DNA from: Desulfatiglandales bacterium
GTDB taxonomy: Bacteria; Desulfobacterota; DSM-4660; Desulfatiglandales; Desulfatiglandaceae
NCBI GenBank assembly: GCA_963666345.1
Contig: OY762721.1
Coordinates: 3,168,001 to 3,232,000, forward strand
DNA length: 64,000 nucleotides
Direction: 5' to 3'
Below, piece by piece: positions 4,115 to 47,412 of this stretch. The translations under genes and the position numbers were made by a program. How positions within the stretch are numbered: the first letter of the stretch is position 1; each line of letters opens with the position of its first letter. The notes beneath the pieces were generated by a model, which ran no database searches, was not told the origin of the DNA, and saw only the letters and a list, made by a program, of their open reading frames with translations.

Positions 4115-4212
4115 TGTTACCTATTATAATTAGTGTAATTATATCAATATGTTAGATTCTTGCAGTCATGGCTGGCTCTGACTGCAGTACTCTAAAAAAA
4201 GGAGTGTTGCCA

Positions 4213-5148
4213 ATGATTGAGGCAAAGAACCTCGTTAAGTACTTCGGTCATAAGTTGGCGGTCGATGATATATCCTTCACCGTTGAAAAGGGAGAGGTCC
4301 TCGGCTTTCTCGGACCCAATGCGGCTGGAAAGTCAACTACAATGAGAATGTTAACAGGTTTTATCTCTCCCAGTTCAGGCACCTCCGTTATCGGAGGGAG
4401 AGATATTGTAAAAGAGCCCTTTGAGGCGAGAAAAATGATCGGCTACCTTCCTGAAAACGCTCCAACCTACCCGGATATGACGGTAACCGGGTTCCTCGAA
4501 TTTATTTCAGAGATAAGGGGATTTTCAGGTAAGGAAAAATTTGCAAGGGTCGAAAAGGTACTTGAAAGATGCTTCCTTTCAGAGGTACGCTTTCAGACCA
4601 TCAATACCCTTTCAAAGGGATTCAAACAGCGGGTCTGTTTTGCCCAGAGTATCCTGCACGATCCTGAGTATCTGATCATGGACGAACCGACCGACGGGCT
4701 TGACCCCAACCAGAAGCACGAAGTGAGGGCCATGATAAAAGAGATGGCCCTGGACAAGGCTATAATACTTTCCACCCACAATCTAGAGGAGGTGGAGGCG
4801 ATCTGCTCAAGGGCGATCATCATAGCTAAAGGAAGGATCGTGGCAGATGATACCCCCTCGGGACTCAAGGCCGGGTCATCACTTCACGGGGCGATCTGCG
4901 TGACTCTCATGTGCGGTTGTGATGAAGCGGTCATTGAAGAGATCCGGGGACTTCCGGGAGTCGGTTCGGTTGAAACAGTGGAAAAGACGGAATCTGAAGT
5001 CACGCTTCGAATATTTGCTGAAGATGGCGGGGGGTGCGGTTCTCAGGATCTGATTCGGTTTTTTATGAAAAAGGAGATGCCGACGGAAAAAATATTCATT
5101 GAAGAAGGTCGTCTGGATGAGGTCTTCAGGAAGGTAACGACAAGTTGA
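4213..5148 (+). CDS. ABC transporter ATP-binding protein (GldA-like)
   Basis: Walker A GPNAAGKS, signature LSKGFKQR, Walker B LIMDEP; AAGGAG RBS before 4213. Confidence 0.92.
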   Translation: MIEAKNLVKYFGHKLAVDDISFTVEKGEVLGFLGPNAAGKSTTMRMLTGFISPSSGTSVIGGRDIVKEPFEARKMIGYLPENAPTYPDMTVTGFLEFISEIRGFSGKEKFARVEKVLERCFLSEVRFQTINTLSKGFKQRVCFAQSILHDPEYLIMDEPTDGLDPNQKHEVRAMIKEMALDKAIILSTHNLEEVEAICSRAIIIAKGRIVADDTPSGLKAGSSLHGAICVTLMCGCDEAVIEEIRGLPGVGSVETVEKTESEVTLRIFAEDGGGCGSQDLIRFFMKKEMPTEKIFIEEGRLDEVFRKVTTS

Positions 5149-5224
5149 TATCTGAAAACCGGTATCAGGATGCGGGTGCCGGTTAAAACAAAAATAAACG
5201 GAGATGCTTTAGAGGTTAATCTAT

Positions 5225-5956
5225 ATGACTAATATCTGGGCTATAGTAAAGAGGGAACTTGCAGGCTATTTCTGTTCGCCTGTGGCATATGTGTTTATCG
5301 TGATATTTTTACTGCTTTCAGGTTTTTTTACTTTTTCCGTAAGCCATTTCTATGAAAACGGACAGGCAGACCTGGCAGCCTTTTTCGGATGGCAGCCGTG
5401 GATTTTTCTTCTCCTGGTCCCGGCCGTAGGCATGAGACTCTGGGCCGAGGAACGGCGCACCGGAACTATAGAACTGCTCCTTACACTTCCTGTCACCCTT
5501 ACGGAGGCTGTTCTCGGAAAATTCATTGCAGCATGGCTGTTCCTGGCGCTTGCCCTGTTCTTGACATTTCCACTGGTCATCACAGTGGCATATCTGGGAA
5601 ATCCTGACATGGGCGCCATATTTTGCGCTTATTTTGGGAATATTCTAATGGCCGGGGCTTATCTGAGCGTGGGAAGCATGACTTCATCCCTGACCAGAAA
5701 TCAGGTGGTCAGTTTTATCCTTGCGGTGGTCATCTGCCTTTTCCTGGTCATTGCCGGGTGGACTCCGGTGACCGAGGTCCTTTCAGGTTGGGCCCCACTC
5801 TGGCTGGTTGAGACAATATCCAGTTTCAGTTTTATCTCCCATTTCTCCTCCATTCAAAGGGGAGTCCTGGATGCCAGGGATCTCATTTATTATGTCTCAG
5901 TGATATTTTTCATGCTCTATGCAAACGGCGTAATCCTGCTCAACCGCAGGACCTGA
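5225..5956 (+). CDS. ABC transporter permease (GldF-like)
   Basis: 'MRLWAEERRTGTIELLLTLP', about 6 TM helices. Confidence 0.9.
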   Translation: MTNIWAIVKRELAGYFCSPVAYVFIVIFLLLSGFFTFSVSHFYENGQADLAAFFGWQPWIFLLLVPAVGMRLWAEERRTGTIELLLTLPVTLTEAVLGKFIAAWLFLALALFLTFPLVITVAYLGNPDMGAIFCAYFGNILMAGAYLSVGSMTSSLTRNQVVSFILAVVICLFLVIAGWTPVTEVLSGWAPLWLVETISSFSFISHFSSIQRGVLDARDLIYYVSVIFFMLYANGVILLNRRT

Positions 5957-5972
5957 TAAAGGAGGATCTTAC

Positions 5973-7853
5973 ATGGTAAAAAAAAGAGGATATGATTCCA
6001 AAAAAATACTCCTCTCGTTAACCGGACTGGTAATACTGTTTGTCATACTTATCCTCGGCAATGTTCTGCTGTCATTTGCAAACATCCGTTATGACGCTAC
6101 AGAGGAAAAGATTTATTCCCTGTCCAAGGGTACGGAAAACATCATCTCGGCACTGGATGATAAGATTACCGTCAAGTTCTTCTTCAGCCGCAGTAATCCC
6201 GATTTTCCGGCGAATCTCAAGTTGTACGCCAAAAGAGTCAGGGATTTCCTTTCCGAGTACGAGAACTCAAGCGGCGGCAGGATAGACGTGGAAATATATG
6301 ATCCCAAGGCCGATTCCGATGAAGAGGAATGGGCCCTCAAATATGGGGTAAAGCCGATGCAGCTCGCCAGCGGGGAAAAGATCTTCTGCGGGCTTGTATT
6401 TCTTTCGCTTGAGCAGGAGCAGACGATCGGGCTGCTGGATCCTGCCAGGGAACCTCTTCTTGAATACGATATAACAAGAATAATAAATGACCTCAGGACG
6501 TTCAAAAAAAAGAAAATAGGAATTATCTCAACCCTGCCTGTTTTCGGCCAGCAGGGGTACCAGATGCCGGGGCAGCCCGGAAGCGAGGCCTGGTACTTTG
6601 TTACCGAGCTGAAAAAGACCTACGAACTGAGCAATATCCCGATTTCCTCGGAAAAGCTCGACAACTCTCTGGACCTATTGATAGTCATTCATCCCAAGGC
6701 CCTGAGTGAAAAATTGCTCTACGCGGTTGATCAGTATGTAGTATCAGGGGGTAATGCCATTATATTTGTTGATCCGGCCTGTGTCAGCGCGTCAACTCGG
6801 GGTCCCGGCGGCATGGTAAGGCCTTCAAGTTCTTCCATGGACAGGCTTTTTACGGCCTGGGGCATTTCAATGGATTCCACAAAGGCCGTGGTGGATTTTG
6901 ATCAGCCCACAAGACTCAGAACACGTGATAACCTTATAGAGAATAATCCTGCCTGGATTTCAGTCAGACAAGGGGCCTTCAATGAGTCGGATGTGGTGAC
7001 TTCCGGCCTTGAGAGGGTGTTACTGCCTGTTGCAGGGGCTATAAAGAAGACGGAAGGAAGTAGCTGCGAATTCGAGCATCTTCTGCAATCAGGCACAAAC
7101 GCGGGGCTGGTGGATCCATTTACCGCAAACGCAGAGGTGCGGGACATAAAAAAAGCGGTTGTGCCTTCAGAGAAACCGCTGAATCTGGCAGTGCGTGTCC
7201 GGGATATTTTCAAGACCGCCTTTCCTGAAGGCCTGCCTGAGTCAAAGAAGGAATCGGATAAAAAGGACCAGAATAGCAGCCACATAGATAAGGGTACAAA
7301 GAAAAGCACCATAATAGTAATTGCCGACGTGGACATGCTTGCGGACGGTTACTATATCTCTAAAGGCAGTTTCCTTGGCTTTCCCGTATCAGAGGTCTTC
7401 AACGACAATCTTAATCTACTCTCCAACGCAAGCGAGATGCTTACAGGCAGTGAGGATCTTATAGGACTGAGGTCAAGGGGTTCATTCGAAAGGCCCTTTT
7501 CCGTGGTTCTTGAGCTTGAAAGAAGGGCTCAGGAAAGATGGATGAGCAAAGAGAAGGAGCTTGTAAAAAGGGCGGAAGAGACAAACAGGCTTCTCAATGA
7601 ACTTCAGCAGAGAAAAGACGAATCGCAGAAACTGATAATAAGTCCTGAACAGGAGGCTGAGATAGCCAAGTTCCGTGAGCAGAAACGGGCAATCGACAAG
7701 GAGTTGAAAGAGGTCAGAAAAAAGCTGAGAGAGGATATCGAGGCCTTGGGTGCCATGCTGAAGGCGGTAAATATCTTTCTGATTCCACTTATTATATCGA
7801 TCTGCGGGATAGGATTTGCCGTTTACAGACAAAGAAGGATTAAGAAAAAATGA
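5973..7853 (+). CDS. GldG family ABC transporter auxiliary protein
   Basis: N-terminal TM, 'RYDATEEKIYSLSKGT', 'LEYDIT', 'DQYVVSGG', C-terminal coiled coil and TM. Confidence 0.88.
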   Translation: MVKKRGYDSKKILLSLTGLVILFVILILGNVLLSFANIRYDATEEKIYSLSKGTENIISALDDKITVKFFFSRSNPDFPANLKLYAKRVRDFLSEYENSSGGRIDVEIYDPKADSDEEEWALKYGVKPMQLASGEKIFCGLVFLSLEQEQTIGLLDPAREPLLEYDITRIINDLRTFKKKKIGIISTLPVFGQQGYQMPGQPGSEAWYFVTELKKTYELSNIPISSEKLDNSLDLLIVIHPKALSEKLLYAVDQYVVSGGNAIIFVDPACVSASTRGPGGMVRPSSSSMDRLFTAWGISMDSTKAVVDFDQPTRLRTRDNLIENNPAWISVRQGAFNESDVVTSGLERVLLPVAGAIKKTEGSSCEFEHLLQSGTNAGLVDPFTANAEVRDIKKAVVPSEKPLNLAVRVRDIFKTAFPEGLPESKKESDKKDQNSSHIDKGTKKSTIIVIADVDMLADGYYISKGSFLGFPVSEVFNDNLNLLSNASEMLTGSEDLIGLRSRGSFERPFSVVLELERRAQERWMSKEKELVKRAEETNRLLNELQQRKDESQKLIISPEQEAEIAKFREQKRAIDKELKEVRKKLREDIEALGAMLKAVNIFLIPLIISICGIGFAVYRQRRIKKK

Positions 7854-8995
7854 AATTCAAGAGTGTCGTTATACTGTCGATTGTGATGGCTGTCGCGGGG
7901 GCGGCCCTATTTGCCTTTTTGCAATTTAGAAACGAGGATCAGCCTGACCGTGAGCTTGGGGCCTATTTCCTGGAGGGGCTTCCGGCAAACAAGATAAACT
8001 CTATTGAAATAAAGTCGAAAGACGGGGCGGTTTCCCTCAAAAAGAGCGATTCCGAATGGGTTGTGACGGATCGCTACAATTACCCCGCTCAATTTTCAAA
8101 GATCTCAGGCCTTGTGAGGAAACTCAAGGATCTCAAGGTGGGAAGACGCTTTGAGGCCTCTGAGGGGAGCCTTGAAAGACTTTCACTTTACTCGCCTGAT
8201 GATCCTCAAGCCCCTGATAAGGCCGAGGGCACTCGGATTGAGCTCAAAGACGAAAAGGGAAATCTGCTTTCTGGGATAGTCCTTGGAAAGGTAAGAAAAA
8301 GCGGCCCTGACAGGAATATCTCCGACGGACACTATGTGATCAGGGATGGAGCCCCTGACATATATCTGGTCGACAAGCACTTTGAATATCTTGATAAGGC
8401 TCCTTCCGAATGGCTTGAAAAAGAACTTGTCAAAGTTGAGCAGAAAGATATCAAGGAGATAGTTTGTCTTGACAATAAAAAGGTACTGTTTTCTCTAAGG
8501 AAACAAAAGGAGGGTGAAGATTTCAGACTATCACCCATGAGAAAAGGGGAGAAGGTGAAGGAGCAGGCCGTAAAGAGGCTTTCTACCGCCATCTCTTCCC
8601 TGAGGCTTGAAGATGTTGCTGATCCTGGGCTCCCGCTCAAAGATACCGGGATAGATGAGACTCCCGACCTGGAATTCAGGCTGTTTAACGGGATGGTCTA
8701 TCGTCTGCTGCCGGGTAAATCGGTTGCTGATGAAGACGGATTCTATCTCAGGATCGTGGTATCATGCCAAAAGAAACCTGTGACTGAAAATAAGGCAACA
8801 GGCGATAAGGGGTCCGAGGAGGAGGGAGCCGAGGCTGAAAAGCTTGAAGAGGATACTCTTCCAAGGTCCGAGCAGTTGCGGAAACGTTTTTCTCCCTGGA
8901 CCTTCAAGATATCCAAGTGGCAGTATGAATCCTTTATCACTGAGAAAGATGAGTTATTCGAAACGCCTGAAGACAAAAAAAAGGAGGGGGCATAA
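7850..8995 (+). CDS. DUF4340-type periplasmic protein
   Basis: N-terminal anchor, 'YNYPA' motif, usual fourth gene of gldA/F/G-like operons, ATGA overlap with gldG. Confidence 0.75.
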   Translation: MKFKSVVILSIVMAVAGAALFAFLQFRNEDQPDRELGAYFLEGLPANKINSIEIKSKDGAVSLKKSDSEWVVTDRYNYPAQFSKISGLVRKLKDLKVGRRFEASEGSLERLSLYSPDDPQAPDKAEGTRIELKDEKGNLLSGIVLGKVRKSGPDRNISDGHYVIRDGAPDIYLVDKHFEYLDKAPSEWLEKELVKVEQKDIKEIVCLDNKKVLFSLRKQKEGEDFRLSPMRKGEKVKEQAVKRLSTAISSLRLEDVADPGLPLKDTGIDETPDLEFRLFNGMVYRLLPGKSVADEDGFYLRIVVSCQKKPVTENKATGDKGSEEEGAEAEKLEEDTLPRSEQLRKRFSPWTFKISKWQYESFITEKDELFETPEDKKKEGA

Positions 8996-9063
8996 TAATT
9001 GCCGAGACACAAAAAGTTGTCCGGATAAGCAGCCTGTGTGATAAAAAATATTACGGGCATGCG

Positions 9064-9231
9064 TGATCACTTAACTCGTCCCCTCCAGAAATGATTCATT
9101 TCTGGATGTTTCCTTCAGCTGTCAGCTATCAGCAAGTAGCCAACAAATTGATATCTCAAGTGTTTTACTGACTGTTGAGAGCTTATTGCTGATAGCGTGA
9201 GTCCATAAATCTTGATTTATGGATGATCACT
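9064..9231. repeat. Short palindromic MITE/REP-like element
   Basis: Two related hairpins (TCCAGAAATGA/TCATTTCTGGA at 9084-9106; TCCATAAATC/GATTTATGGA at 9202-9223), heptamer run TCAGCTG-TCAGCTA-TCAGCAA with opposing TTGCTGATAGC, flanked by direct repeat TGATCACT. Confidence 0.5.
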
Positions 9232-9368
9232 AACTCATAATTGTGAAATTATAGAAACAGGCAACGAAAGCTGGAGGATGAAACACGCAGCTTCATAGGT
9301 AAAAAAGAGCTCAACTCTTAAACTATTTAACCATTTTTTTACTCAAGGGTGGGTCAATTTTCAACGCC
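9230..9368 (+). pseudogene. istB: IS21-family remnant: 3' end of istB plus right-end repeat
   Basis: 9230-9298 translates LTHNCEIIETGNESWRMKHAAS*, matching the IstB C-terminal motif (DRLTHxCxIxETGNESWR); GGGTGGGTCAATTTTCAACGCC at 9347-9368 resembles an IS21 terminal repeat. Confidence 0.7.
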
Positions 9369-9488
9369 TGTCGGAAACCATTTTTACCTGTTCGGTATTT
9401 TCCCGGATTTTTAATACCTTGAACAAAGCGCTTCAGGGTTTATATTAAAAAGGCATGAGTTGCTTTATGAAAATCGGGGAGGTCTGAA

Positions 9489-9689
9489 ATGGGTGAAAAA
9501 ATCAATGACCTGAATGGCAGTTATTGTAAGATACCGGCAAAAAAGAAGGGGTGGTGGGGCAGATTTCTGGAAAAGCTCGAAAATTCCAGGGAAAATCAGG
9601 CCGCCTGTGTAGCCTGAGGGGGACCTGATGTCGTCCGGGCCGGACGAGAAAAATGGAATGAGAATAAAGGGATAAAGCAGGACCTTTGA
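9489..9689 (+). CDS. Candidate small CxxU selenoprotein, 66 aa (in-frame UGA at 9615-9617)
   Basis: GGAGG RBS; MGEKINDLNGSYCKIPAKKKGWWGRFLEKLENSRENQAACVA-U-GGPDVVRAGREKWNENKGIKQDL*; hairpin TCGTCCG-GGC-CGGACGA begins 13 nt after the UGA; selB is in the same window. Confidence 0.65.
9631..9647 (+). promoter_or_regulatory. Putative bacterial SECIS element
   Basis: Perfect 7-bp stem with a G-initiated apical loop 20 nt downstream of the in-frame UGA. Confidence 0.55.
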
Positions 9690-9775
9690 ATAAGGTTCAA
9701 ATTATTTCTGATCTGCATGGATTAAATTATTTGGTAATAGCAAGGGAATAAAACAGCAACTTGGATGATTTTTTT

Positions 9776-9806
9776 AAGGCAGGGTCTTTATGACCCTGCC
9801 TTTTTT
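9776..9806 (+). terminator. Rho-independent terminator after the small ORF
   Basis: AAGGCAGGGTC/GACCCTGCCTT stem followed by a T tract. Confidence 0.8.
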
Positions 9807-9827
9807 ATTGATCTTTTACGCGTTGAT

Positions 9828-9898
9828 AATATTTCGTATATAGATATTTTGTGTACGAAAAATATATCATTGACATGTCCTAACCTGCATGATATCTG
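9828..9898 (+). promoter_or_regulatory. Promoter and putative MarR operator upstream of marR-proVWX
   Basis: Inverted TTTCGTA...TACGAAA in AT-rich tandem palindromes (9828-9865), next to TTGACA-17 nt-TATCTG (9870-9898). Confidence 0.4.
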
Positions 9899-9999
9899 AT
9901 GATATGATTTCAGCTGGATATAATTTATGGTGAAAATTTAATTGCCAAATAAATAAATTTCCGCAGTAAACAGATCGTGAATCGAAAAGAGGTTAGCAA

Positions 10000-10446
10000 G
10001 TGGAACGGGCGGTAATGCATGCCGAAAGCATATTTCATTCTTTGAGGCGTATAACCCACGCACTTGCCCAGCATAGCAGGCAATTGAACGACAGGTTTAA
10101 CCTGACTGTTCCTCAGGTCTTATGTCTGAGGCAATTGCTCGGTAAGGGGCCGTCTACGATCGGAGACCTGGCTAAAAGTTCTTACTTCAGTCAGGCCACT
10201 ATAACCGGCATTGTTGACAGGCTGGAATCCCGCGGACTTGTGCAAAGGGACCGTAACGACTTTGACAGGAGAAGGGTGATCGTATCTCTCACCGATAAGG
10301 GAAAGGAGCTTGCATGTGATATGCCTGGTCCGCTGCAGGACCGGTTTGCGACTGAATTGAAAGCGTTATGTGAGGAAGATCGAGACCGGATCGACATGGT
10401 ATTGAAGCAGTTGGTTGACATGATGGAGGGGAGAAAAGGTACATAA
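10000..10446 (+). CDS. MarR family transcriptional regulator (possibly EctR/CosR-like)
   Basis: 'LTVPQ', 'ITGIVDRLESRGLV.R', 'DRRRVIVSLTDKG'; directly upstream of an osmolyte transporter. Confidence 0.9.
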   Translation: MERAVMHAESIFHSLRRITHALAQHSRQLNDRFNLTVPQVLCLRQLLGKGPSTIGDLAKSSYFSQATITGIVDRLESRGLVQRDRNDFDRRRVIVSLTDKGKELACDMPGPLQDRFATELKALCEEDRDRIDMVLKQLVDMMEGRKGT

Positions 10447-10612
10447 GATTAAAGATAAGTTTCAAATATAGGATCGTTCAAGTCAAATTGATCCTATTTC
10501 CTTTTTGCCTAAGCAGTTTTAGCCCAATTTTCGACGAAAATATTTTCAAGAAAAGCCTGTCTGCAAAAACGTCCCATAACAGGTAAATGCGCAAATAGAT
10601 AAGAGGACACGA

Positions 10613-11815
10613 ATGGAAGAGAAAATAGCAATAGAAAATCTTTACAAGATCTTTGGGCCTCATCCTGAAAAGGCGATAAAGCTTTTGAAGGAAGGGCAGA
10701 CCAAAGATCAAATAATGGAGAAGACGAAACATGGAGTGGGTGTTGCAGATGCCTCTTTCGTGGTCAACGAGGGAGAAATCCTTGTTGTGATGGGGCTTTC
10801 GGGTAGTGGAAAATCGACCCTGATAAGATGCATAAACAGACTCATTGAGCCGACTTCCGGGAAGGTTATCGTGAACGGTGAGGATGTTACATCTCTTTCC
10901 CCCGAACGGCTAAGGATGTTCAGACAGCATCATTTTGGAATGGTCTTCCAGAATTTCGCGCTTTTTCCCCACAGAACGGTTATCAAAAATGTTGAGTACG
11001 GACTGGAAGTCCAGAATGTGGATCCAAATATCAGGTATGAAAGATCCATGCAGGCCCTTGAGCAGGTAGGCCTTAAAGGGTGGGAGGACGTATATCCCGC
11101 GCAGCTCAGCGGTGGAATGCAGCAGCGGGTGGGACTTGCGAGGGCACTTGCCCTGGATGCCGATATTATGCTTATGGATGAGGCATTCAGCGCACTTGAT
11201 CCTCTTATCCGCAGGGACATGCAGGATGAACTTCTGGCCCTTCAGGAGAGCGTGCATAAGACAATCGTTTTCATAAGTCACGATCTTGATGAGGCACTTA
11301 AACTGGGAGACAGAATCGTTCTGATGAAGGACGGAGTTATAGTTCAGGAGGGAACCGCAGAGGAGATATTGACTAATCCCGCCAATGACTATGTTGCAAA
11401 ATTTGTGGAAGAAGTGGACATGAGCAAGGTCATCACGGCGGAGTCGGTGATGGTTAAGCCTGCGGCCATTGCCTCGTTTAAAACGGACGGCCCCCGTGCG
11501 GCCATGAGAAAGATGAAGCATGCAGGCATATCGAGCATATTCGTAAGGCATGAAGGCAACCTGATCGGAATGGTTACGGCCGACTCGGTAATAGAAGCAA
11601 TCAAGAACGGGGAGAAAAGCCTGGAAAGTTCATTGATAAAGGATTTGCCAACGGTAAGTCCCGACACTCGTGCCATAGATCTTTTCCAGCATCTTGCGGA
11701 ATTAAGCTATCCCTTGGCGGTTGTGGATGAGAATAAAAAATTGAAGGGAATAATAATAAAGGGGACGCTCCTTGCTGCCCTTGCCGAGGGAAGACATAAC
11801 GGGGGGACGGAATAA
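10613..11815 (+). CDS. proV: Glycine betaine/proline ABC transporter ATP-binding subunit with CBS domains
   Basis: GLSGSGKS, LSGGMQQRVGLARAL, MDEAFSALDPLIR, C-terminal CBS pair. Confidence 0.95.
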   Translation: MEEKIAIENLYKIFGPHPEKAIKLLKEGQTKDQIMEKTKHGVGVADASFVVNEGEILVVMGLSGSGKSTLIRCINRLIEPTSGKVIVNGEDVTSLSPERLRMFRQHHFGMVFQNFALFPHRTVIKNVEYGLEVQNVDPNIRYERSMQALEQVGLKGWEDVYPAQLSGGMQQRVGLARALALDADIMLMDEAFSALDPLIRRDMQDELLALQESVHKTIVFISHDLDEALKLGDRIVLMKDGVIVQEGTAEEILTNPANDYVAKFVEEVDMSKVITAESVMVKPAAIASFKTDGPRAAMRKMKHAGISSIFVRHEGNLIGMVTADSVIEAIKNGEKSLESSLIKDLPTVSPDTRAIDLFQHLAELSYPLAVVDENKKLKGIIIKGTLLAALAEGRHNGGTE

Positions 11816-12651
11816 TGGAACAGTTCAAGATACCCATCGGGTCGGTAATTGAAGGTATAATTAATTTTTTCGTTGATCATTTTGCCTTTCTTACAAAGGC
11901 CTTTTCCAAGGTCACTGAACATGGCATAGAAATGCTTGTCAATCTCATGATGTTTTTCCCGCCCTGGCTTCTGATCCTGTTTTTTGCAGCCCTTGCCTAT
12001 ATCCTTACAAAGAAAAGGGGCATTGTCCTTTTCACTTTTCTGGGGCTCTGTCTCATATGGAACCTGGGACTGTGGCCGCCTACGGTGAGCACTCTTTCGC
12101 TGGTTCTCATATCGACGCTATTTGCAATTGCCATAGGTGTCCCGCTAGGCATTCTGGCGGCTATAAGCAATATCTTTTACAGGATCATAATGCCGATTCT
12201 TGATTTCATGCAGACAATGCCTGCGTTTGTGTATCTGATCCCGGCGATTCCCTTTTTCGGGCTTGGTCCTGTGGCCGCCATCTTTTCAACGGTTATTTTT
12301 TCCATGCCTCCGGCCATAAGGCTTACCTGCCTCGGCATCAAGCAGGTACCTAAGGAACTGGTGGAGGCCGCCGATGCGTTCGGCAGCAGCAAGGCCCAGA
12401 AACTTTTCAAGCTCCAGCTCCCCATTGCCACTCCTACAATTATGGCGGGAATCAACCAGACCATCATGCTTGCCCTTTCAATGGTCGTTATAGCCGCGAT
12501 GATCGGGGCGAAAGGCCTAGGAGGCGAGGTATGGAAGGCGATACAGAGGCTTCAGCCTGACAAGGGATTTGAGGCTGGTATCGGTATAGTTATAGTTGCA
12601 ATTATCCTTGACAGGATAATGCAGCAGTTCGGCACCAAAAAGGAGTCCTGA
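11815..12651 (+). CDS. proW: Glycine betaine/proline ABC transporter permease
   Basis: 'LDFMQTMPAFVYLIP', EAA loop, 'MAGINQTIMLALSMVVIA'. Confidence 0.95.
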   Translation: MEQFKIPIGSVIEGIINFFVDHFAFLTKAFSKVTEHGIEMLVNLMMFFPPWLLILFFAALAYILTKKRGIVLFTFLGLCLIWNLGLWPPTVSTLSLVLISTLFAIAIGVPLGILAAISNIFYRIIMPILDFMQTMPAFVYLIPAIPFFGLGPVAAIFSTVIFSMPPAIRLTCLGIKQVPKELVEAADAFGSSKAQKLFKLQLPIATPTIMAGINQTIMLALSMVVIAAMIGAKGLGGEVWKAIQRLQPDKGFEAGIGIVIVAIILDRIMQQFGTKKES

Positions 12652-12733
12652 TCAGGATCGAAGATCAGACCTGGTGATTCGTGATTTATGTCGAAACTTT
12701 TAATAACAACAGATAAAAAGGAGGATAACAGGG

Positions 12734-13588
12734 ATGAAAAAGACTTTGAATATTTTGCTTGCAGCGGTTTTTATGGTTGCTTTTACTCTCGCCCCTTCAG
12801 CTATGGCCGCGAAGGAAAAGGTTGAACTTGTATATGTGGAATGGTCCTGCGCGACAGCAAGCGTTAATGTTGTAAAGGCGGTGCTCCAGGAAAAGATGGG
12901 TTACAAAGTAGAAGTAACTCCCGTAAGCGCGGCCGCCATGTGGCAGGCCCTGGCAACCGGCGATGTCGACGGAATGACGACGGCATGGCTGCCTATCACC
13001 CATGGTCATTATTTGGACAAGGTAAAGGATAAGGTCGTAAACCTGGGGCCCAACTGCAAAGGGGCCGGGATCGGCTTGGTGGTGCCGAAATATGTCACCA
13101 TAGATTCCATAGATGAGCTGAACGCCAATGCGGACAAGTTTGATAAAAAGATCATTGGTATCGACCCTGGTGCTGGAATAATGTCCAAGACCGAAAAAGT
13201 GATTAAGGATTACGGTCTTGATAAATTCAAACTCATGGAAGGTACCGGTGCTATGATGACAGCGGTTCTTGGCGACAGGATCAAGAACAAGGAGTGGGTC
13301 GTCGTTACCGGATGGACGCCTCACTGGAAGTTTGCCAGATGGGACCTAAAGTATCTCAAGGACCCCAAGGGAGTATATGGCGGCGAGGAATATATCGCGA
13401 CCATCGTAAGAAAGGGCCTGGACAAGGACATGCCCGAGGTCTATAAGTTCCTGGATAATTTTTACTGGACCTTGGCTGACATTGGAACAGTCCAGGGATG
13501 GAACACCGAAGAAGGGGCGGATCCCTATAAAAACGCCGTAAGATGGATTAATGAGAACCCGGAAAAGGTCAAAAAATGGCTTGAATGA
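12734..13588 (+). CDS. proX: Glycine betaine ABC transporter substrate-binding protein
   Basis: Signal peptide, 'AWLP', 'GIDPGAG', 'GWTPHWKF' Trp cage (OpuAC type). Confidence 0.93.
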   Translation: MKKTLNILLAAVFMVAFTLAPSAMAAKEKVELVYVEWSCATASVNVVKAVLQEKMGYKVEVTPVSAAAMWQALATGDVDGMTTAWLPITHGHYLDKVKDKVVNLGPNCKGAGIGLVVPKYVTIDSIDELNANADKFDKKIIGIDPGAGIMSKTEKVIKDYGLDKFKLMEGTGAMMTAVLGDRIKNKEWVVVTGWTPHWKFARWDLKYLKDPKGVYGGEEYIATIVRKGLDKDMPEVYKFLDNFYWTLADIGTVQGWNTEEGADPYKNAVRWINENPEKVKKWLE

Positions 13589-45507: not shown

Positions 45508-47412
45508 ATGAAGCAGATCATACTGGGCACGGCGGGTCATATCGATCATGGAAAGACCTCTCTTATAAAGGCGCTTACCGGAATCGACACAGACAGGTTG
45601 AAAGAGGAAAAGGCAAGGGGCATAACCATTGAACTGGGGTTTTCACACCTGGAGCTGCCCGGTGGCATGCTCCTGGGCATAGTGGACGTGCCGGGACACG
45701 AGAAATTCGTGAAAAACATGGTGGCGGGCGCGACCGGTATAGACCTCGTGGCCCTGGTTATCGCCGCTGATGAGGGGGTGATGCCCCAGACAAAGGAACA
45801 CCTGGAGATATGCCAGCTCCTGGATATCCGGTATGGCCTGGTGGTATTGACCAAGATAGATATGGTCGATGAGGAATGGCTTGATCTTGTGAAAGAGGAT
45901 GTAAGGGAATATCTCTCAAATACCTTTCTGGCCGATGCCCCAGTGGTGGAGGTGTCTTCCGTGACAGGCCGGGGGCTTGATGAAATGGTCGATGTCCTTG
46001 ACTCCCTGGTCAGCGGGATCCCCGAAAAAGATACGGGACACCTGTATCGGCTTCCGATCGACCGGGTTTTTACCATGAAGGGATTCGGCACGGTTATAAC
46101 GGGAACCAGTATCTCGGGAGAAATCGGAAACGGCGAAGATGTAACCATATACCCGCAGGAGATAAGCTCACGCATAAGGGGCCTTCAGGTTCACAACAAG
46201 GAGGTCGAGAAGGCGCATGCAGGCCTGAGAACGGCCGTTAATCTTCAGGGCCTTGAGAAGGAGGCTATCCGCAGGGGAGACGTGCTTGCATCAAAGGGCT
46301 CGTTACGGAAGACCATGATGATGGATGTAACTCTTGATCTTCTCCCAGCTGCCGCACGCAAGTTGAAGAACAGGGCAAAGGCACGTTTCCACACCGGGAC
46401 ATCGGAGATTATCTCCACGGTAGTTCTTCTTGACAGGGATGAACTGGCGCAGGGTGAGTCCTGTTTCGCGCAGATAAGGCTCAATGAACCGACCGCGGTG
46501 TTAAGAAATGACAGATTCGTGCTCAGGAGTTATTCCCCTGTCAGGACCATCGGCGGAGGTGTGATATTGAATCCACTTCCGAGAAAAAAGAAACGCTTTT
46601 CCGAAAGGGTGCTTTCCGAGATGGAGATCCTTAACAGCGGCGATACGAACAATATTATAAAATTATTTGTGGCTGAAGGCCGTTTTCAGGGTATTTCAAA
46701 GGGGGAGCTTTCCTTTCTCGTAAACATGAGCAGAAAAAAGCTTGAAGAGGCAGTCAAACCTCTTTTGGCAAAAAAGAGCCTGATCCTTTATAACAAGGAG
46801 GGGGAACTGCTGATCCACAGGGATCTTTACGATACCGCGGTCAATCAGATACTGGAGACGCTGGCTGATTATCACAAGAAATATCCATTAAAGGCGGGAC
46901 TTCAGAAGGAGGAACTGCGTTCAAGGACCGCCGGGGCAAAGAATCAGAGGCTCTTTGTCTCTCTGGTAAACAGGCTCATCAAGGACGGTACCCTGGTGCA
47001 GGAAAAAGAGAGCCTGCGCCTTAAAGAACACAGGGTCACCCTGGCCGCGGACCAGGAAAAGACCAGAAAAGAGATCAAGGAGATCTACAGAAAAAGCGGT
47101 CTTCAGCCTCCCTATTTCAAGGAGATAAAGGAGCGGTTCGCGGGGAGCACCGGACCTGAGGTCCTCGAATTCATGGTAAAGGACGGTGTGCTTGTCAAGG
47201 TGAAGGAGGATCTGTATTTTTATAAGGAAAGTGTTGGTCAGCTGGAAAAAAAGCTTGTTGATTTTCTAAGGGAAAAGGGCGAGATCACAACACCTCAGTT
47301 CAAGGAGATGACCGGGATTTCAAGGAAGTACACCATCCCTCTTATCGAATACTTTGACCGATGCCAGCTGACGGTAAGGGTAGGCGACAACAGGGTCCTT
47401 CGAAAGAGGTAG
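45508..47412 (+). CDS. selB: Selenocysteine-specific translation elongation factor
   Basis: [37 protein letters not shown]-terminal winged helices ending SRKY.IPL.EY.D. Confidence 0.97.

Follow-up and report, generated by a model that had tools for sequence, protein, structure and literature searches.

A short stand-alone gene widespread in one Desulfobacterota order probably encodes a selenocysteine variant of the putative metal-binding LDCC module

Does the first in-frame TGA of a very short gene in a Desulfatiglandales genome terminate its product at 42 residues, or is this codon read as selenocysteine (Sec), and what would a selenopeptide of this size be for? The gene lies in the window (the whole stretch of 64,000 nucleotides that was analysed), in a 1-kb gap separating an ABC/DUF4340 operon from a MarR gene. 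Its frame runs for 42 codons to C-V-A, encounters a TGA, stays open for 23 more codons and closes at a second TGA, and the ORF list at the locus holds no rival frame of 60 aa or more across it. A preliminary description made from the letters alone had placed the GGAGG ribosome-binding site, the ATG, both parts of the frame, a TCGTCCG/CGGACGA stem with a G-first loop and a terminator after the second stop, all of which were found where it had put them; the monocistronic layout that it proposed is likewise supported. The features of the locus, in window coordinates, are as follows.

9419..9446, + strand: candidate sigma-70-like promoter, agreeing with the consensus at 9 of 12 positions, 43 nt upstream of the ATG (consensus scan only)
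9478..9482, + strand: Shine-Dalgarno GGAGG, 6 nt 5' of the ATG (sequence reading)
9489..9689, + strand: predicted selenoprotein CDS of 66 aa, shortened to 42 aa should the first TGA act as a stop (ORF and homologues)
9525..9527, + strand: Cys13, an extra Cys confined to the clade made up of L095, L106, P0050 and this genome
9552..9593, + strand: amphipathic helix, residues 22-35, LDCC-like core (AlphaFold2, hydrophobic moment, NF040898 at 15.6 bits)
9606..9608, + strand: Cys40 of C-x-x-U (Cys at -3 in 57/58 homologues)
9615..9617, + strand: TGA putatively read as Sec43 (TGA in 58/58 stand-alone homologues, aligned to the invariant YHS/LDCC Cys)
9631..9647, + strand: predicted SECIS hairpin, 7-bp stem and GGC triloop, the stem starting after 13 nt and the loop after 20 nt past the UGA (folding, homologues, likeness to the selD hairpin)
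9687..9689, + strand: final stop, the second TGA, with no hairpin behind it (z 0.01)
9776..9806, + strand: intrinsic terminator-like hairpin, 11 pairs (9776-9802) with a T-run (inverted-repeat scan)

The surroundings say little about function. The ABC/DUF7088/DUF4340 operon upstream (4168-8995) and, downstream, the MarR gene with what appears to be a glycine-betaine ABC transporter behind it (10000-13588) are neither of them conserved neighbours of the family described below. The promoter scan returned 6 sigma-70-like sites versus 3.1 +/- 1.4 in shuffled sequences. Across 52 upstream regions of homologues, no shared operator and no sigma-54 promoter were seen, only sigma-70-like hexamers, with a TTGAAA hexamer in 17 of the 52. 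Within the gene itself, an inverted repeat at 9596-9617 pairs the codons preceding the UGA with the UGA (7 pairs) and could hinder its decoding.

The machinery for Sec is present. selA, selD (with an in-frame TGA of its own) and tRNA-SeC were found in the genome, where the preliminary description had left them to be confirmed, and selB is, as it had noted, in the window itself (45517-47403, + strand, above the TIGR00475 cut-off), with a tRNA-Asn directly upstream on the opposite strand. Other selenoprotein genes of this genome (L210-L217, L219 and L138 in G000) encode several HdrA, formate dehydrogenases, PrxU, TsoX, a rhodanese, an Fe-S oxidoreductase, SelW-like, HesB-like and OS_HP2 proteins and SelD. 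One further locus (L218, G000:C1:391581, - strand) has an in-frame TGA with coding-like flanks but neither an NCBIfam match at 1e-12 nor a clear hairpin with a G-loop, and could be either an unrecognised selenoprotein or two abutting frames. A UGA that simply terminates a 42-aa C-x-x-COOH peptide, the hairpin being a 3' mRNA-stabilising or other element, has points in its favour: TGA is the commonest stop in the genome (770 of 1844 long ORFs), and public proteins terminate at this very site.

Relatives were found in 16 of 61 kin genomes in a first search, and a 10-sequence profile gave matches in 90 of the 209 genomes of the order. The fetched loci amounted to 107 rows, of which five were dropped (L121, L057 and L056 as spurious, L123 and L127 as YHS-type without a terminal Cys), leaving 58 stand-alone genes ending in C-x-x-stop, from 57 of the 209 genomes, and 44 paralogues ending in C-H or C-C-x, with a YHS domain detectable in 37. 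Named records among the relatives come from Desulfobacteraceae, Desulfobacterales and Deltaproteobacteria MAGs. Some genomes, G006, G117 and G119 for instance, have both types; in the genome studied here no paralogue was found by tblastn (best other E 0.17) or by profile, and no homologues were found in viral contigs. Gene callers do detect the stand-alone gene, as a 42-aa shortened product: one such is on public record at 98% identity (P0090), so the gene is not invisible to standard gene callers as had been claimed, and 48 of 67 short matches in the protein search terminate at C-x-x. The gene is widespread in one Desulfobacterota order, where annotation wrongly renders it as a shortened hypothetical protein. 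When the standard code is applied, no fewer than 64 genes of the order, and further ones elsewhere, end at this UGA.

In the stand-alone genes this codon is TGA without exception (58/58), whereas the paralogues use TGA 30 times, TAA 11 times and TAG three times. The homologues with TAA or TAG at this position that would have told against recoding are missing from the stand-alone group. Since kin are not independent, a limit that applies to the Fisher test of this contrast (p 2e-6), stop changes were also counted on a tree, a rough one built from 35 columns. The paralogues show 13 changes over 21.6 branch-length units, at least 8 of them forced by well-supported branches, while the stand-alone group shows none over 39.0 units, where 14-23 would be expected by our arithmetic. 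Synonymous A/G and C/T sites in the helix vary freely while the TGA stays, which also argues against a plain stop. Ten profile matches missed by the core profile comprised six stand-alone genes (all with TGA and hairpin), two YHS-type genes (one TGA, one TAG) and two spurious hits, and further stand-alone members, seven from wider searches and five metagenomic, all have TGA. Sampling of the phylum (28 of 401 genomes) and of a second class (13 of 251) gave mostly YHS-type or spurious matches plus seven stand-alone genes, with a short profile whose sensitivity is low. Co-occurrence with selA is uninformative, as nearly all genomes here have it: 180 of the order's 209 overall and 52 of the 57 carriers of the stand-alone gene. 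Among the five carriers without selA, four have selB and three a TGA-containing selD; in one carrier (G106, 77% complete) no selA, selB or selD was found.

The second line of evidence is the hairpin. On its own, the query hairpin is modest (z -1.58, with 15 of 200 shuffles equally stable), and an equally good G-loop hairpin lies behind about 0.5% of sampled TGA triplets in the genome (37 of 7995). Context makes it rarer: the genome contains 4724 Cys-x-x-TGA triplets, a G-loop hairpin of <= -9 kcal/mol follows 32 of them, and five of these 32 also have a start led by a Shine-Dalgarno sequence, four with an HdrA motif (by likeness to one confirmed HdrA) and the fifth being this gene. When the genome was searched with a profile of homologue hairpins that left out this genome and its two nearest kin, the query UGA ranked 16th of 165,383 TGA triplets. 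A G-loop hairpin of <= -5 kcal/mol follows 43 of the 58 stand-alone UGAs versus 2 of the 44 paralogue stops. When 57 sequences are aligned, the common structure is a GGN triloop above a stem whose closing pair is an invariant C-G; pairing in it reaches 80.8% versus 62.1 +/- 1.4 in shuffled alignments and at most 58.5% with slid partners, and covariation 0.488 versus 0.187 and at most 0.166, respectively; the structure scored was derived from the same sequences, which biases these figures in its favour. Double changes were found in seven of the eight stem pairs, with C-G/G-C swaps at the closing pair, and the excess of G-U over A-C cells (17 versus 6) favours the + strand.

Several properties of this stem are those of a SECIS rather than of a coding sequence or a terminator. 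The loop begins 18, 20, 21, 22 or 24 nt after the UGA, so that the stem is read in different frames in different members, and of the 56 members whose loop could be placed, 13 have a frame that ends before the loop is reached, with the hairpin nevertheless kept, as expected of a SECIS. Its distance is fixed to the first TGA and not to the second stop, which, together with the G-first loop and the lack of a T-run, is difficult to reconcile with a general 3' stabilising element behind a plain stop. A role as terminator was rejected, the 8 nt after the stem containing on average 1.25 T and 3.7 A. The bSECIS model as given in PMC13188914 calls for a loop of 3-9 nt with a G in its first two positions, a stem of 4-16 bp, a distance of 16-37 nt from the UGA and an MFE of <= -7.5. 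The query hairpin, for which the preliminary description had proposed a bSECIS prediction, fits it as so given, with 7 bp, a GGC loop, 20 nt and -9.2 kcal/mol for the hairpin alone. Sec hairpins elsewhere in this genome are comparable: those of selD and the Fe-S oxidoreductase have GGA triloops (at 20 and 23 nt), and those of the formate dehydrogenase, HdrA, TsoX and rhodanese genes have G-loops of 4-5 nt at 18-22 nt. However, of the genome's other Sec codons only that of the Fe-S oxidoreductase falls within the top 70 of the family profile, at rank 41, and since the profile misses most of the others the GGN triloop appears to be a family trait and not a genome-wide consensus. Rfam models scored nothing near their gathering score over 8900-10100, and a covariance model (R1) returned the query first, by construction, with five weak matches besides.

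What follows the UGA as protein is, in contrast to the RNA, hardly constrained. The tail is 2-25 codons long with a mean identity of 0.17 at positions +2 to +5, the only recurring elements being the residue directly after U, a G in 40 of the 58 members, and the codons dictated by the hairpin, so that homology does not continue past the Sec at the protein level. The GGPDV that had been expected to be conserved downstream is not: GGPxV, within GGPxVVRAG, is restricted to this genome and two close kin. The predicted 66-aa product likewise holds for this clade and not for the family, the length of 66 aa being clade-specific. A missing protein-level conservation after the UGA had been named beforehand as an observation that would speak against Sec, and it also lends something to the plain stop; it was indeed observed, but it does not refute recoding because what is conserved here is the RNA. 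For near-terminal Sec, Haft and Gwadz waive the criterion of continued homology (bioRxiv 2022.07.06.499078). In our reading, the short tail serves chiefly to carry the SECIS. A second Sec at the final TGA was considered and rejected, because folding 3' of it is no better than that of shuffled sequence (z 0.01) and second stops are mixed across the stand-alone family (27 TGA, 18 TAG, 12 TAA and one cut off).

The identity of the peptide provides the third line of evidence. The query has no Pfam match and scores 15.6 bits (42-aa form) or 14.7 bits (read-through form) against NF040898 (CC_mini_metal, or LDCC, a 31-position domain in which metal binding is putative even in the model's own name), below the cut-off of 30. 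All 10 seed members likewise match this model below the cut-off, three of 19 relatives of the 42-aa type ending in C-x-x reach the cut-off, and YHS fusions and CC-type proteins exceed it. Homology of the amphipathic helix rests on this profile match, on the AlphaFold2 prediction and on profile-profile comparison with YHS/LDCC proteins (hhalign, probability 98.9, E 1e-17), which places U on their invariant Cys. The resemblance to LDCC-type proteins that had been suspected from the helix is thereby borne out, while the family, which had been called unrecognised, is better described as an offshoot of LDCC scoring below the cut-off than as an unknown fold. Counted from the helix, 44 of the 53 stand-alone members that could be anchored have U at position 26 (24 in the query clade), and the first terminal Cys occupies position 26 in 22 of 37 anchorable YHS-type paralogues, 14 others having a shorter linker. 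AlphaFold2 predicts a single helix at residues 22-35 (block pLDDT 85) with disorder elsewhere (mean pLDDT 62.8); the helix is amphipathic, with a hydrophobic moment of 0.68 over residues 23-33. A PDB sequence match to myosin-VI (E 0.65-0.81) was rejected as chance and no solved relative was found in that search, and the 'ldcC motif' named in PMC5737381 is, from what that source says of it, an unrelated cis-regulatory RNA.

The alignment of U with the invariant LDCC Cys makes the two a Cys/Sec pair, with an extra Cys at -3. The NF040898 Cys-Cys pair itself is replaced by C-V-A-U in the query. Among 69 + 37 + 4 protein matches no stand-alone C-x-x-C orthologue with a tail was found, and the Cys partner is hence a paralogous subfamily and not an orthologue. 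The YHS paralogues end 1-2 residues past their Cys, as a genuine 42-aa peptide ending soon after this position would, but a TGA that aligns with an invariant Cys is not what termination would predict. With an invariant UGA, a covarying hairpin tied to it and the machinery at hand, we consider it very likely, from comparative sequence evidence, that the UGA is recoded as Sec with the help of a SECIS, as the preliminary description had proposed, and termination at this codon correspondingly improbable.

What the residue would do is less clear. We favour a model in which the stand-alone gene, probably driven by sigma-70, encodes a Sec variant of the LDCC module: SelB-Sec-tRNA would be recruited by the hairpin, whose GGN triloop lies some 20 nt downstream of the UGA, and Sec would be inserted, giving a product with a basic disordered N-terminus, one predicted amphipathic helix and a near-terminal C-x-x-U, in which Sec would replace the invariant LDCC Cys and a Cys would lie three residues before it. 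The helix may dock on the membrane or on a partner protein, and the thiolate and selenolate of C-x-x-U may hold a soft metal, for instance Cu(I), or pass it to another protein, as a mini-chaperone or buffer. The metal is suggested by the paralogues, since the commonest co-oriented neighbour of the YHS-type genes is a CopA-like P1B ATPase (10 loci). In one genome, four YHS-LDCC genes lie within 14.5 kb (L080, G109:C1:463000-477500), which suggests a metal-resistance island, and the YHS domain has been proposed, in a passage of PMC4626032, as a copper sensor. Taken jointly, Sec recoding and a role as a soft-metal ligand have in our judgement slightly better than even chances of being right.

Around the 58 stand-alone genes themselves, none of the conserved neighbours seen is related to metals. 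A response regulator in divergent orientation (20 loci), a class II aldolase in convergent orientation (14) and a transglutaminase-like gene (6) occur there, with various others. The Cys at -3, which the CC/CH paralogues do not have, and the lack of a CopA neighbourhood would be consistent with a membrane-tethered peptide whose C-x-x-U cycles as a redox couple (selenenylsulfide/selenolthiol), perhaps to scavenge peroxide or to reduce a partner, and CxxU, the context stressed in the preliminary description and supported by Cys at -3 in 57 of 58 homologues, is common among redox selenoproteins in the 2026 inventory (PMC13188914). However, the one helix is the sole ordered element predicted by AlphaFold2, with no thioredoxin or other fold, no conserved reductase partner lies nearby, and a member that lacks this Cys (L069) still has TGA and hairpin, so that we regard a redox function as unlikely. 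Like L069 (L069:1586, - strand), P0023 and P0087 lack the Cys at -3.

The same monocistronic layout, with no functional neighbourhood, an unconstrained tail, a Sec (58/58) more invariant than its Cys (57/58) and a genome rich in selenoproteins, could alternatively reflect selenium economy: the inserted Sec would be stored, or its insertion would titrate SelB-Sec-tRNA, or the product would switch between C-x-x-COOH at low and C-x-x-U at high selenium, the two forms acting differently on a partner. A pure sink would nevertheless need neither the helix nor the Cys, both of which are strongly conserved, and one Sec per about 50 residues is poor storage; moreover, a terminator or a convergent gene is often found 3', and a role as leader peptide was rejected on this ground and for want of a conserved co-oriented downstream gene. 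We consider selenium economy distinctly unlikely. A bolder reading, which we consider unlikely, is that the family might be a fold-less selenopeptide serving solely to present a selenolate, gone from the copper operon of its paralogues and acting, in anaerobic Desulfobacterota, as a constitutive high-affinity Cu/Hg trap or as a selenium-status switch on a membrane partner.

How does this family relate to known ones? It shares with NF040898 the helix, Sec falling on model position 26, where that model has the first of its two paired Cys, and differs from it in having C-x-x-U and a SECIS instead of Cys-Cys; the name of that model bears no (seleno)protein mark. The YHS-LDCC fusions (PF04945 plus an NF040898-like tail ending in C-H or C-C-H) are homologous in the tail (probability 98.9), but have an N-terminal YHS domain, mixed stops, a hairpin in only 2 of 44 and often an adjoining CopA-like ATPase. 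Related in design are SaoC (NF040734) and KCU-star/DUF466 (NF033934), small proteins of the Cys-Cys type with Sec in place of a terminal Cys and a SECIS running past the stop, that of SaoC being a 7-bp stem with a GGU loop (bioRxiv 2022.07.06.499078). They share the near-terminal Sec and show that a SECIS lying beyond the coding region is not unprecedented, whereas they have CU and a conserved transporter neighbourhood, and the present family has CxxU, a tail of 2-25 residues and no such neighbourhood; ten members gave no match to the two models at E <= 1. Table 1 of PMC13188914 includes three further small selenoproteins, NF041384 (YHS domain-containing (seleno)protein), NF041239 (CC/Se motif) and NF041197 (dual CXXC OS_HP3). 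NF041239 has CxxU in common with the present family, and NF041384 is touched only by the YHS-fused paralogues, at 15-19 bits versus a cut-off of 70.

No selenoprotein model of NCBIfam 20.0 matched ten read-through members (E <= 1) or the stand-alone proteins (E <= 0.05), Table 1 of PMC13188914, from the 2026 inventory of 119 families, has no LDCC entry, and full-text literature searches gave no description of an LDCC-motif selenoprotein, the main-text passages on BSepDB (PMC13326102) and deep-Sep (PMC12013277) included. The gene very probably encodes a Sec-containing form of LDCC, itself a known small module with a putative role in metal binding, and this form is uncatalogued in the selenoprotein lists checked. 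Such a family would tend to be missed by the usual pipelines, because the ORF is tiny, Sec is near its end, homology stops there and the Cys homologues end there; according to the authors of deep-Sep, selenoproteins for which no Cys homologue can be recognised may be lost at their filtering step (PMC12013277). The 13 members whose SECIS loop lies beyond the stop constitute a natural test set for the reach of SelB outside the coding region, and peptides of about 40-65 residues can be synthesised, which would allow a direct test of the LDCC module and of Sec versus Cys-Cys in metal binding. The query clade (with L095, L106 and P0050) stands somewhat apart, with the conserved Cys13 ahead of its basic segment, a linker that is shorter by two residues and a longer tail, of 20-23 codons, which gives its members three possible S/Se ligands.
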